Source: Armatimonadota bacterium
GTDB lineage: Bacteria; Armatimonadota; Zipacnadia; Zipacnadales; UBA5352
NCBI GenBank assembly: GCA_034722055.1
Contig: JAYENL010000043.1
Coordinates: 1-14,009, forward strand
Reading direction: 5' to 3'
DNA: 14,009 nt
The notes under the pieces are model-generated. The model was given only the letters and a program-made list of their open reading frames with translations, was not told where the DNA came from and searched no databases. Positions 1,385-12,010 of this stretch are shown one piece after another. Every line of letters begins with the position of its first letter. Within the stretch, counting starts at the first letter, position 1. Position numbers and translations under genes: made by a program.

Positions 1385-3292
1385 ATGCACAGGATGGGCC
1401 GATCCGTGACGATCCTCATGGCATCGCTACTGGCGGTCGCAACCTGGGGGGCGGAGCTGACGCGCCACGATCTGGGGCGCACGGTGAAGTTCAAGGTGGT
1501 CGTCGATAAGGCGATGCAGCCGGAGGCAGACTGGCACACCGAGGAGTGGATGGTCAAGGAGAGCGCGGACGCGGGATTCAACGTCTACTCGCCGCGGCGC
1601 GCCAATGACCTCGACGAGGTCCGACAGGTCACGCAGTGGTGCGGGAAGTACGGCATCCTGCACATCCCCTGGATGCGGGGCACGCTGGGGGCGAGTCTCG
1701 ATGACCCCAAGGCCGATGGCAAACGCATGGTGTGGGCCTCCGGCCTGGAGGACAAGCTGTGGAGCCCGAACTCGGACGAGTTCTGGGAGTGGACCAACGG
1801 GCTGATCCTGGAGTACGCGAAGATCAGCAGGGAGATGCCGGAGCTGTTCGGCGTCTTCCTGGACTACGAGAACTACGCACTGGGGTCCAACGGCTACGCC
1901 CTCTCCTACGACGACATCATCATGGGCAGCTTCGCTCAGGCGAAGGGCATGGACCTGCCCGAGCTTGCCCTCGATGAACGATACCAGTGGCTGAAGGACC
2001 AGGGGCTGCATGATGAGTTCGAGGCCTTTCAGGTCCAGCACTGGCGGGAGCGATGCCGGACCTTGCGGGAGGCCGTGGACGCCATCGACCCCACCTTCAT
2101 GTTCATGATCTACCCCGCGCCGGGCACGAAGTTCATGATGGAGGCCTGCTATCCCGAGTGGGCCACCGAGCAGGCGCCACTGATCCTGGCCGACGCGGTG
2201 ACCTACGGCCGCCGGGCGGTGCTTCCTCACATGCAGGCGCTCCGGGCGAACCGCAACGCTCTCCGCGAGCGCCAGCAGCTTGCCCGGAGGGCTGGGGTCC
2301 CGATGCTCTACACCGGCGGGATCGATCCGGCGGTGAAGGGCGCCGACCCCGAGTTCTGCGGCCGCAACGCCGCGATGATCTCGCACGTCACCGACGGCTA
2401 CTGGATCTTCTACGAGGGCCCCGAGTACGAGCAGGACCACCCGGAGTACTTCGACTGGTTTGCGCAGGCGAACGAGGCCATCAGCAACCGCAACTGGCAG
2501 TGGGCGTGGCAGAAGCGCGAGACGCCCGACACCTTCGGCCTCGAGGAGCTGACCATAGAGCAGCCCGACAAGAAGCAGCTCATCATCTACGGGGCCAAGA
2601 GCCCCTTCATGGGGATGCTCACCGATAATGAGGAGTACGAGGTGCACGAGCTGGCCGGGGTGTCGCTGCAATACTTTGCGCAGGCGGACGTGGTGATCCT
2701 GCAGAACTTCAACCAGCAGCTCCCGCGCGGCTCGCCCTTTGTGCAGATGCTGCAGGACTACGTGGAGCAGGGCGGGGGGCTGATGCTGGTGCACGATACG
2801 GGGTGGTTCATGGCCAGCCCCTTCCCAGAGATCGCGGTGCGCGACGTTCCCACGCAGCGGGTGGAGGCCGTGCGCCACGTGGTGGAGACCGACCTGGTGG
2901 TGGAGGACGTGCATCACCCGGCGCTGCGGGGCATCGACCCCAGGACGCAGTTCTCCACCGAGTTCCGCGACCACATGATCTTCAAGCCCGGCGACCTGGG
3001 CACTGTCCTGCTGCGCAACGAGTTCGGCGACCCGGTCTACGTGGCCGGCCAGATAGGGCTTGGGGGGGCTGTGGCCACGGGAAGAGACGCGGAAGCGTCT
3101 CCGGGGCGCGTGATCTTCTCCGGCTGCTATTACGGCTACAGTAATCCGCTATCGGGGGCGGAGGCAGAGGTCTTCTGGTCGTGCGTGGGCTGGCTGGCCG
3201 GGGAGGGCCCGAGCTACCGGCGGCCGATACGCCGCATCCACGAGGGGCCGCACCCCGCAGAGCCATGGCCGGAGCGAGCGGGGTTCAAGTAG
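1385..3292 (+). CDS. Secreted protein: putative glycoside-hydrolase-like TIM barrel plus C-terminal ThuA/class I glutamine-amidotransferase-like domain
   Basis: Long ORF with GC-rich third positions. AGGGAGA at 1371-1377 favours ATG 1385 (ATG 1379 and TTG 1331 are alternatives). Signal-like MHRMGRSVTILMASLLAVATWGA, GVFLDYENY in the N-terminal domain, ADVVILQN...LQDYVEQGGGLMLVH and GRVIF typical of ThuA/GATase1-like folds. Confidence 0.75.
   Translation: MHRMGRSVTILMASLLAVATWGAELTRHDLGRTVKFKVVVDKAMQPEADWHTEEWMVKESADAGFNVYSPRRANDLDEVRQVTQWCGKYGILHIPWMRGTLGASLDDPKADGKRMVWASGLEDKLWSPNSDEFWEWTNGLILEYAKISREMPELFGVFLDYENYALGSNGYALSYDDIIMGSFAQAKGMDLPELALDERYQWLKDQGLHDEFEAFQVQHWRERCRTLREAVDAIDPTFMFMIYPAPGTKFMMEACYPEWATEQAPLILADAVTYGRRAVLPHMQALRANRNALRERQQLARRAGVPMLYTGGIDPAVKGADPEFCGRNAAMISHVTDGYWIFYEGPEYEQDHPEYFDWFAQANEAISNRNWQWAWQKRETPDTFGLEELTIEQPDKKQLIIYGAKSPFMGMLTDNEEYEVHELAGVSLQYFAQADVVILQNFNQQLPRGSPFVQMLQDYVEQGGGLMLVHDTGWFMASPFPEIAVRDVPTQRVEAVRHVVETDLVVEDVHHPALRGIDPRTQFSTEFRDHMIFKPGDLGTVLLRNEFGDPVYVAGQIGLGGAVATGRDAEASPGRVIFSGCYYGYSNPLSGAEAEVFWSCVGWLAGEGPSYRRPIRRIHEGPHPAEPWPERAGFK
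3063..3105 (+). repeat. REP-like palindromic element, copy A (inside the 1385-3292 CDS)
   Basis: GGGGGGCTGTGGCCACGGGAAGAGACGC-GGAA-GCGTCTCCGGG; 37/43 ungapped identity to the intergenic copy at 10708-10750. Confidence 0.85.
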
Positions 3293-5526: not shown

Positions 5527-5710
5527 TTTGTGCGAGAGACCGGAAGCCGAGAGGTGGCGCACCGGCGAAAGGTGGGGGAGAGGAGCCCCCTGCAACGAGT
5601 GCTGCGCCGCCCGGACCGATGCGGCGTGCAGAAGGGGGCCCGCGTTGTTTGACGCGCGGGCCGGGGTGGAGCCTGAGCGGTGCGTTAGAGGTTTGAGAAC
5701 GCCCCGCTCA

Positions 5711-5748
5711 CCGGAGACGCGCAGCGTCTCTTCCTACCGCCGCAGCTC
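5711..5748 (-). repeat. REP-like palindromic element, copy D
   Basis: Minus strand GAGCTGCGGCGGTAGGAAGAGACGC-TGC-GCGTCTCCGG; same stem and flanks as copies A/B, with GTAG 5' of the stem. Confidence 0.8.
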
Positions 5749-5855
5749 GGCCGCTCGCTTCGCTGGTGGCGGCCCCTACACGGTGGGCGCGAGAGCGTCC
5801 TGGCGTCACGCGGGAAGGGCAGGTAGGTAGGTACGCGAGCTTCTGTCGGCCAGCT

Positions 5856-6757: not shown

Positions 6758-7120
6758 TTACAGGATATAGGCGCGGATCTGCAGGTCGGCGACCTCGGGG
6801 TCTACTGCCGGCTGCGGCTGCCGGTCCGCCCATGCCCGCACGATAATCCGCAGCACACTGCTACGCGTGAACTCCTGCACCGCGGCGGCGTGCCAGTCCA
6901 GCGCGCGTACGTGCTCCCGCGGCAGCCGCAAACACACTTGCACCTTCTCCAGCGGCCTCTCGCAATCCTCGCCCTCAGGCTCTGCGGGAGGCATGGGCTC
7001 ACGCTCCACCCAGGCGCGGACGATGGTGCGCGCCACATGGCTACGGGACCGCGCCACATACGCCGCCCGGGCGTCCAGCGCCGCAACCAGGTAGCGCGGC
7101 ATAATCACACTCACTCGCAT
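6758..7120 (-). CDS. Tandem ribbon-helix-helix (CopG/Arc/MetJ-like) DNA-binding protein (120 aa)
   Basis: Two homologous units, MRVSVIMPRYLVAALDARAAYVARSRSHVARTIVRAW and VQVCLRLPREHVRALDWHAAAVQEFTRSSVLRIIVRAW, joined by a Pro/Glu linker. RBS is weak, so the start is uncertain. Confidence 0.8.
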   Translation of the reverse strand: MRVSVIMPRYLVAALDARAAYVARSRSHVARTIVRAWVEREPMPPAEPEGEDCERPLEKVQVCLRLPREHVRALDWHAAAVQEFTRSSVLRIIVRAWADRQPQPAVDPEVADLQIRAYIL

Positions 7121-8961: not shown

Positions 8962-9198
8962 AGCGACGAGCTACCAGCGACAAGCTACAAGCCAACGGCT
9001 GCGAACGGCAGACAGCAGCAGGCAACATCAGATAACGACAGCCAACGACAGAGATGGCAGGCACCGGCGCCCGGTGTGCGGTCGCGTCCCCTCCGTTCCC
9101 GAGGGCTAACGGGCGAGCTGGGCAGCGCGCCGCTCCCTGCGACATGCAGACGCCGTTCCTGCCGTAGCCTCGCAGCTTTTCGCTCGTAGCTCGTCGCT
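8962..9198. repeat. Intergenic element with imperfect terminal inverted repeats built from 7-mers, containing a 10-bp tandem array
   Basis: 8962-8991 matches the reverse complement of 9169-9198 at 26/30 (first 13 perfect). Six 10-bp units at 8992-9051. Confidence 0.75.
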
Positions 9199-10525: not shown

Positions 10526-10670
10526 GTGAACCCTCCCTCTCAATCGTGACAGCAACACGCAGCAGGACTGCGCGCGGATCGACGAATGACGACAGCGACG
10601 ACTGTGGACTGCCGGCGGTCCAATGGCCCCCACACGAAGGGCGCGCTCCAACGACAATCGCCCTCCGGCC

Positions 10671-10750
10671 GGGGCTGTGCCCGCGGGAAGAGCGCGCAAA
10701 GGCCTCCGGGGGGCTGTGGCTGCGGGGAGAGACGCATACGCGTCTCCGGG
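10671..10750 (+). repeat. REP-like palindromic element, tandem copies C (degenerate, 10671-10710) and B (10708-10750)
   Basis: GGGGCTGTGCCCGCGGGAAGAGCGCGCAAAGGCCTCCGGG followed head-to-tail by GGGCTGTGGCTGCGGGGAGAGACGC-ATAC-GCGTCTCCGGG. Confidence 0.85.
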
Positions 10751-10807
10751 CGCCCCGCCCGCACGTTCCGCCGACACTACCAACTTGCACCCGGCTCCCC
10801 CGCCGGG

Positions 10808-10898: not shown

Positions 10899-11085
10899 CG
10901 GGAGTCAGCGCCGCCACCCGGAGCGCGCCACGCGTCGCCGGTGGCGACGTTTCTCTTCGCACACCCACTCCTCAATGAACGACAGATAACATCAGACCAC
11001 ACCAGTCACCACACGGCACGGCACCGGACGGCAGACAGCGTCAGAGGACCTCGGCAACGACACGACAGACCTAAAGGGTGAGGCA

Positions 11086-11952: not shown

Positions 11953-11960
11953 GCCAGCAG

Positions 11961-12010
11961 TTAACGGCAGACAACATCAGATAACGCCAGATAAAGGCAG
12001 ACAACGGCAG
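11961..12010 (+). repeat. 10-bp-period degenerate tandem array (consensus about AYAACGGCAG)
   Basis: TTAACGGCAG ACAACATCAG ATAACGCCAG ATAAAGGCAG ACAACGGCAG, five units in exact register. Confidence 0.85.

Follow-up and report, generated by a model that had tools for sequence, protein, structure and literature searches.

The DNA analysed here, hereafter the window, is a stretch of 14,009 nucleotides from a metagenome-assembled genome (MAG) of an Armatimonadota bacterium (G000; 330 contigs, 68% G+C), and the sequencing runs that contain window DNA are brine metagenomes. A palindromic repeat unit of 42 bp was found to lie in frame within a protein-coding gene at positions 3065-3106 of the forward strand. 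The host gene (1385-3292, forward strand) encodes a protein of 635 aa, its start codon being uncertain between 1331, 1385 and 1406, and the closest named homologs of the protein are labelled Armatimonadota. The protein comprises an uncharacterised N-terminal region and a C-terminal GATase1/ThuA-like domain, the latter harboring the insert. The unit contributes 14 residues, about 560-573 of the protein (P0001), and scores 55.3 bits with a covariance model of the family.

The insert is bounded by a 3-bp direct repeat, GGG, with its left copy at 3062-3064 and its right copy at 3104-3106 as the last bases of the unit, which gives the period of 42 bp that the first-pass annotation of this DNA had read between the two GGG. 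The norm in the family is GGGC, and the window copy lies one base off the family register. The conserved 5′ arm contains the tetranucleotide GTGG (3071-3074), with 9 nt between it and the stem; although it resembles the tag of repetitive extragenic palindromes (REPs), it stands neither at the end of the unit nor next to the stem. The hairpin (3084-3101) is made of a 7-bp stem, with arms at 3084-3090 and 3095-3101, and a 4-nt loop, and its structure is kept across the family while its sequence is variable. For the window copy the fold has z = -4.1, and none of 200 shuffles folded as well.

The first-pass annotation had expected orthologs to show a clean gap of 14 residues at this site, and this was borne out. 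Among 119 homologs, aligned without P0002, the window protein's own database entry, 115 lack exactly 14 residues between the anchors, one lacks 12 and three end before the site. The ortholog of the same genus (86-88% identity) has the empty site, and the insertion, being absent from this sister species (G001), is younger than the split of the two species. The insertion is probably recent, because the window copy ranks fifth by profile score and lies only 3 bases from its nearest sister, the distance to every other copy being at least 3 bases. A Logan contig crosses the site with 0 differences, its run possibly being the source of the window DNA and hence not independent, and no contig across the insert site is listed for the runs X4, X5 and X6.

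The assignment of the host domain to a ThuA/GATase1-like fold is supported by Foldseek, which matched the class I glutamine amidotransferase-like structures 2gk3, 3soz, 1t0b and 3rht (E 3.5e-8 to 3.4e-5), and the Pfam ThuA match (E=6.6e-4) falls under the Pfam cut-off. An AlphaFold model of residues 396-605 has a mean pLDDT of 94.9, with pLDDT of 66-76 in blocks 161-180 and 96-98 elsewhere. The insert lies in these blocks and is modelled as a loop between the beta-strands E155-162 and E179-184, as had been predicted. The homolog P0004 carries an unrelated extension of two residues at the same turn, which suggests that the turn is a tolerant site.

Copies of the unit in the genome

The unit consists of an arm, GGGGCTGTGGCNGYGGGRA, followed by the 7-bp stem with its 4-nt loop and then by (C/A)GGGC; GGGC usually precedes the unit as well, giving a period of 42 bp, and the length is 42 bp, sometimes 45. 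The window copy (3063-3105) and an intergenic copy (10708-10750) are identical at 37 of 43 positions without gaps, with an identical stem and three of the six differences in the loop, which reproduces the match first reported. With the intergenic copy as its only seed, an ungapped profile recovered 55 copies above 20 bits, with none in block-shuffled and reversed genomes, and a gapped profile (nhmmer) recovered 87 copies of at least 12 bits, with none in the reversed genome. Orthologs that still carry the 14 residues, or a motif with no other copies, would have counted against an insertion in the first-pass annotation; instead, orthologs are empty and the genome contains 55-87 copies. The scan pattern proposed there is one base too short and matched nothing, the window copy included. 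A stem-free search of G000 with the arm revealed no new subfamily above background, and Rfam gave no match in the window at the gathering score.

The copies of G000 share GTGG (49-50 of 54 per base) and show covariation of the stem pair 23/34, which is G-C in 29 and A-T in 14 of 55 copies (Fisher p=4e-6). As many as 39 of the 55 are free of stop codons in all six frames, compared with 38% of shuffles. By our own gene calls (85% coding), 82 of the 87 copies are intergenic and five overlap genes, namely the window copy, two antisense units in a gene on contig C135, one unit in a gene on C191 and one weak match on C37 (12.4 bits). The last was left out of the in-gene count, so that three genes were counted. 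Other repeat families of G000 are nearly never located in genes (0/86, 0/28, 0/52, 0/46 and 2/128). The C191 gene is 14 residues longer than all six of its orthologs, and the C135 gene, with two units, has about 27-29 residues more than all seven of its more distant homologs. In the same-genus ortholog of the C135 gene a truncated in-frame copy of 32 nt occupies the same site (25.7 bits; none of 12 million null positions), and this may reflect either a hot spot or an old shared insertion of which one lineage later lost part and the other gained a second copy. The claim that a small mobile palindrome writes peptides into genes therefore stands as far as in-frame copies in other genes are concerned, but most copies in G000 are intergenic, many of them within other repeat hairpins, and only three genes are affected.

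Head-to-tail arrays of the unit were detected in G000, for example on C135 and C314, with C135 holding at least ten copies. Upstream of the C135 gene lies an unrelated tandem repeat (L027:3975-4250) with a period of 14 residues (42 nt), which was seen on this contig only.

Empty and filled versions of other repeats, here called hosts, coexist in G000. Host hairpin A was found empty in 51 cases and enlarged by 42 bp in five and by 43 bp in two, among 67 anchor pairs, and host hairpin B was empty in eight, enlarged by 42 bp in two, by 43 bp in one and by a double unit in one, among 21 anchor pairs; the remaining pairs of both look like chance pairs or other repeats. Variants enlarged by 40 bp were observed for host repeat C. 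Because these versions coexist in one genome, the unit is seen to insert as a module at GGGC.

The window itself provides two further sites. The intergenic full copy (10710-10751, forward strand) is the second of a tandem pair whose first member, directly upstream, is a degenerate copy with a broken stem (10669-10709, forward strand; family D6), and the pair appears inserted into host hairpin repeat B, the left arm of which lies at 10653-10664 (forward strand). As a whole, the 10706-10752 copy folds unexceptionally (z = -0.95). A shorter variant with a 3-nt loop (5709-5753, reverse strand) is found within host repeat C (5663-5764, reverse strand), a family that also flanks a Y1 gene, like those of REP-associated tyrosine transposases (RAYTs), on contig C193.

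Copies in relatives, junctions and biases

A covariance model was searched against 79 genomes of the class, including G001, of the same genus, and G006, of the same family and another genus. It gave 70 copies in G000, 10 in G001, 64 in G006 and one strong copy each in G007 and G012, while a first model, run on 61 genomes, had given 76, 13, 45, 1 and 1 copies plus one weak match. Only weak matches (E>8e-4) were found in five more of the 79 genomes, and matches of this grade were recorded for G005, G024, G048, G050, G302 and G388. The family is thus abundant in only three of the 79 genomes. A limitation to one genus, suggested by a strict pattern that matched 2 of 61 genomes, was rejected when the covariance models found G006. 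Across the 401 genomes searched from the phylum, a stem-free pattern had matches in G000 and G006 and at one chance site, the exact pattern over genome_contigs matched 13 loci in three records, one of them a chance match in Streptomyces, and viral_contigs gave no match. The matches in G192 (L136) and Streptomyces (L196) have neither stem nor direct repeat and were dismissed as chance.

The copies of G006 keep the arm, the 42-bp length and the position of the stem, and their stem sequences differ. In a mixed alignment of 30 rows, six of seven stem pairs are changed on both sides and 96% of the stem cells pair, compared with at most 46% in slid controls, figures that related rows inflate. From about 64-67 candidates in G006, 53 were examined, and two false positives without a gap relative to homologs were dropped, leaving 51 copies. 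A total of 32 of these are in frame, within 28 genes, and 17 of the 28 genes show exact gaps of 14, 15 or 42 residues relative to G000 homologs, including all 16 of those with a G000 homolog of at least 50% identity and aligned flanks. Six copies of G006 are 45 bp long, five of them within genes. The host genes are unrelated and include HypF, PfkB, a xylose-isomerase-like barrel, a radical SAM protein, glycoside hydrolases and a tyrosine recombinase; the HypF gene (L142) contains three tandem units, and the tyrosine recombinase (L149:135-1124, G006:C592; Phage_integrase with an N-terminal SAM-like domain) carries a 45-bp copy that adds 15 residues relative to its G000 homolog. The single copies in G012 and G007 are exact inserts of 14 residues.

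Twelve metagenome loci are nearly identical to loci of G006, and one of them (L214) has one unit where the G006 locus (L112) has three, a difference that may be due either to ongoing array change or to assembly collapse. Near-identical copies with matching flanks are present in both species of the genus, namely at 5663-5764 of the window and G001:C154:3392-3436 (L108), and at G000:C166:8114 and G001:C485:3697, and the family therefore predates the split of the two species.

Junctions were compared in 40 non-tandem copies from G006, G012 and G007, 15 of 55 being left out (11 tandem, three of other lengths and one at a contig end). In 28 of the 40, compared with 18.1 expected (0 of 5000 shuffles), the left and the right GGGC are followed by the same base, and direct repeats of at least 7 bp were observed in 15, compared with about five expected. 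Where the target base differs from the consensus, the left junction is target-like in eight copies and consensus-like in ten. The length of the direct repeat varies from 0 to 10 bp. In 39 non-tandem copies of G000 no covariation was detected between the bases after the left and right GGGC.

Copies in genes use all six frames with distinct biases. Of 30 copies, 25 use the sense strand, where about 60% would be expected (p=0.004-0.01), and 19 use the Gly/Ala-rich frame, after a glycine codon, which makes up 33-37% of the available targets (p=0.0006-0.003); among sense-strand copies alone the preference for this frame is marginal (p=0.03-0.06). Intergenic copies in co-oriented spacers are sense-biased too (38 of 46), and part of the bias therefore comes from the mechanism or from selection at the RNA level. 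The GGGC target often coincides with a glycine codon, and this may partly steer inserts toward turns, beside selection. The proposed insertion at surface turns accordingly agrees with the loop of the model, but the preference for turns may in part reflect this target and not selection alone.

How the unit may move

That the window contains a mobile repeat inserted in frame we regard as close to certain. Beyond this, it is probable, in our judgement, that we are dealing with a REP-like mobile repeat that is not autonomous, belongs to one Armatimonadota family and is moved by a dedicated hairpin-reading enzyme acting in trans. The unit inserts as one module at (C/A)GGGC-like sites, leaves a direct repeat of 3-8 bp, conserves its hairpin geometry, lands in other repeat hairpins, spacers and genes, and forms head-to-tail arrays. 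The length of the unit is divisible by three and stop codons are usually absent from it, so that an insertion within a gene keeps the frame and adds a Gly/Ala-rich loop of 14 or 15 residues. A copy would be released as folded single-stranded DNA, probably as a circle joined at the GGGC repeat, and an enzyme encoded elsewhere would recognise the sequence of the arm and the shape of the hairpin and integrate the copy at GGGC. Arrays could grow by slippage or by rolling-circle copying between the direct repeats, and the surviving inserts would be near-neutral loops and not new functions; by analogy with the Rickettsia palindromic element (RPE) in guanylate kinase of Rickettsia (PMC2229807), the inserted peptide is most likely neutral. 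An enzyme of the RAYT type (HUH, Y1), supplied in trans, is the first candidate, since the circle excision and amplification model for REPs and bacterial interspersed mosaic elements (BIMEs) leaves the same short sequence on both sides (PMC3333891), and we would put its chance a little short of even.

The search for a mobilizer in G000 gave two IS110-family matches and two reverse transcriptase loci, none of which has the unit. The loci G000:C318:14933-16168 (L079), C185 (L080) and C98:1411-2604 (L078) comprise two genes for reverse transcriptases, of which one is fused to a long N-terminal part unrelated to it, and an IS110-family-like protein that is atypical. No match was obtained in G000 for DUF559, nor for the IS91 Y2_Tnp, a search whose control likewise matched nowhere. 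The single GIY-YIG match of G000 lies in a frame of 637 aa and is not a small stand-alone nuclease, and the four 23S-IVP four-helix genes adjoin, by coordinates, none of the listed copies; both candidates were rejected. Six Y1 genes were found, which by eye are presumably RAYT-like and are flanked by other palindromes, including host repeat C. They are located on C193 (about 22660-23920, L022), C256 (about 59740-60600, L024), C100, C30, C61 and C324, most of them beside long palindromic repeats. The core motif of host repeat C, which flanks the C193 gene, has about 200 matches, and further REP-like families have 46-158 motif matches each.

Several observations weigh against this reading of the unit. 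Direct repeats that bound the unit on both sides and take some of their bases from the target are atypical of insertion of the IS200/IS605 type. No gene family recurs among the open reading frames near all 87 copies. The outer stem, which is like that of enterobacterial REPs, was supported in G000 but is not maintained in G006, where 77% of cells pair and one pair is broken in 16 of 30, and it was dropped as a feature of the family. Four G006 loci, compared with distant homologs (at most 41% identity), gave the inexact gaps -2, 11, 12 and 72, and seven of the 28 G006 genes fell outside the gap comparison. In the window, the junction is one base off the family register, and translation of the insert into the host protein is a prediction from the sequence. 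The GTGG, 9 nt from the stem and not terminal, is not placed like a REP tag (PMC3733652, PMC8266576). The unit flanks none of ten Y1 loci in G000, G001, G006 and G007, which are MAGs 83-93% complete, and loss of REPtrons is on record (PMC3733652).

The junctions favour another kind of enzyme for the same element, a recombinase with an overlap of 7-8 bp, which could be an enzyme of the IS110 type or a tyrosine recombinase that works on a folded single strand of DNA. Resolution of a heteroduplex would make left junctions sometimes donor-like and sometimes target-like, and the mixed donor and target junctions, together with the agreement of the base after GGGC, the excess of direct repeats of at least 7 bp and the two IS110-family matches, point in this direction. 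However, GGGC is not known to resemble the cores of dif or attI, the junctions of G000 do not covary, and neither IS110 locus has the unit or dispersed copies of its ends; on balance we consider such a recombinase unlikely, if the most serious of the rivals. With the same low expectation we consider that the unit is the substrate of an undescribed system, in which a non-RAYT enzyme would insert a 35-nt single-stranded element, made of a constant arm and a swappable hairpin, through an overlap of ~8 bp centred on GGGC, with lengths kept to multiples of three (42 or 45 bp), and which would be adapted to genes through the bias of its target for glycine codons on the sense strand, creating new loops in dozens of enzymes within one species.

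Movement without any dedicated enzyme is somewhat less likely still. Host replication or repair would then spread the unit, with template switching or gene conversion joining G-rich microhomologies where a hairpin stalls the fork and with arrays arising by slippage, and the variable direct repeats of 3-10 bp, the frequent tandem arrays, the resemblance of the target to both unit ends and the lack of a cognate enzyme in the searches of G000 and at the Y1 loci of four genomes would all fit. Against it, the arm sequence is kept across genera while the stem is replaced at fixed geometry, which suggests recognition by a protein, the insert length is precise at many unrelated sites, and the family is abundant in so few genomes of the class.

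Selection of the peptide, or of an mRNA hairpin, for a function in regulation or as a new surface, which would make the in-gene copies adaptive, is improbable. The sense bias, the preference for the Gly/Ala-rich frame and the truncated in-frame copy at the C135 site in the sister species are what it would predict; however, the same sense bias is seen in spacers, where no peptide is made, six frames are used in unrelated host genes with a marginal frame bias within the strand, and the sister species lacks the window insert. Chance resemblance or misassembly, for which the 68% G+C, the fragmented MAG and the lack of a run known to be independent across the site might speak, is very improbable given the empty null searches, the distance of the window copy from any other copy, the exact gap in 115 homologs and the same pattern in other genomes.

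A few other features of the window were recorded. Inverted repeat arms of 38 nt (84%) lie at 8962-8999 and 9161-9198 on either side of the spacer between convergent genes, and a related arm is located upstream of the host gene (1326-1370). An A/C-rich 10-bp unit, which forms a separate tandem-repeat family, makes intergenic arrays at 8994-9061, 10973-11054 and 11953-12010 (families D1 and D2), and its two-unit motif has 81 matches on 20 contigs. The frame at 6761-7120 (reverse strand) encodes a small protein with weak ribbon-helix-helix and HicB-like matches under the cut-off, apparently two repeated domains and no obvious toxin partner.

Relation to known repeats and significance

The first-pass annotation did not recognise the element as described. 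The family is new, but in-frame intragenic palindromes are already well described outside Rickettsia (PMC3733652, PMC2229807). As described by Di Nocera et al. 2013 (PMC3733652), GTAG- and CGTC-tagged REPs are palindromes of 20-40 bp with stems of 6-9 bp and GTGG variants of the tag, mostly intergenic and tandem or clustered, and some lie wholly within open reading frames of many species, adding 20-30 residues. The unit resembles GTAG REPs as a dispersed, imperfect and mostly intergenic (82/87) palindrome, its 42 bp slightly exceeding their range, and a G000 subfamily has inner stems of GRCG/CGYC as in GTAG-3. It differs in that their unpaired GTAG/GTRG tag is terminal, next to or 2 nt from the stem, whereas the GTGG of the unit is internal; in having a conserved arm of 19 nt before the hairpin and bounding direct repeats; in forming head-to-tail arrays, which are rare among GTAG families; and in that no RAYT gene was found beside it among the ten Y1 loci of four genomes. 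CGTC REPs have a terminal unpaired CGTC, a stem of 8-9 bp and a short CCA tail. The stem of the unit has 7 bp; G006 stems lack CGTC, and the motif is confined to the 3′ stem arm of a single subfamily. Armatimonadota are not mentioned in the main text of PMC3733652.

With RPEs the unit shares a dispersed palindrome that is both intergenic and in frame in unrelated genes, is absent from orthologs and adds a tolerated peptide (PMC2229807, PMC10969869), and the in-gene share in G006 (32 of 51) is at least the 'nearly half' given for RPEs. By their description, RPEs are set apart by a length of 105-150 bp and terminal inverted repeats (Table 1, PMC2229807), as the unit measures 42-45 bp, ends in direct repeats with GGGC and uses all six frames. 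Pattern scans of genome_contigs with the unit returned no Rickettsia record. The mosaic repeats, the insertion in or next to repeats and the tandem amplification of REP/BIME/REPIN systems with RAYT (TnpA-REP) are also similar (PMC3333891, PMC8266576, PMC3116915), and recognition of a folded single strand may likewise be the basis for the unit, RAYT-like genes being present in the same genomes; the unit, however, flanks none of the Y1 genes examined and forms no inverted doublets with itself. The small dispersed repeats (SDRs) of Nostocaceae are described as similarly very small, tandem and probably mobile without a known transposase (PMC2884548). Unlike classical miniature inverted-repeat transposable elements, the unit has neither terminal inverted repeats nor a target duplication of fixed length (direct repeat 0-10 bp). 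Elhai and colleagues are said to have put the Nostocaceae SDRs, in 2008, at about 20 bp, as against the 42-45 bp of the unit. No such Armatimonadota repeat was found in the literature searched, a comparison outside which Figure 1 and the supplements of PMC3733652 and Elhai 2008 fall. By the sources compared, the unit is a new family of a known phenomenon, which works like RPEs and intragenic REPs and is a member of neither.

The finding adds Armatimonadota to the lineages whose proteins receive peptide loops from very small palindromic repeats. It provides a clean test set for the movement of such repeats, a question still open for RPEs and most REPs, with empty and filled targets in one genome, stems swapped between genera at fixed arm and geometry, and partly target-derived junctions. 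In annotation, inserts of 14 residues of this kind are repeat-derived and should not be taken for functional motifs, and the 28 genes with inserts in G006 are a natural experiment on the tolerance of protein loops.

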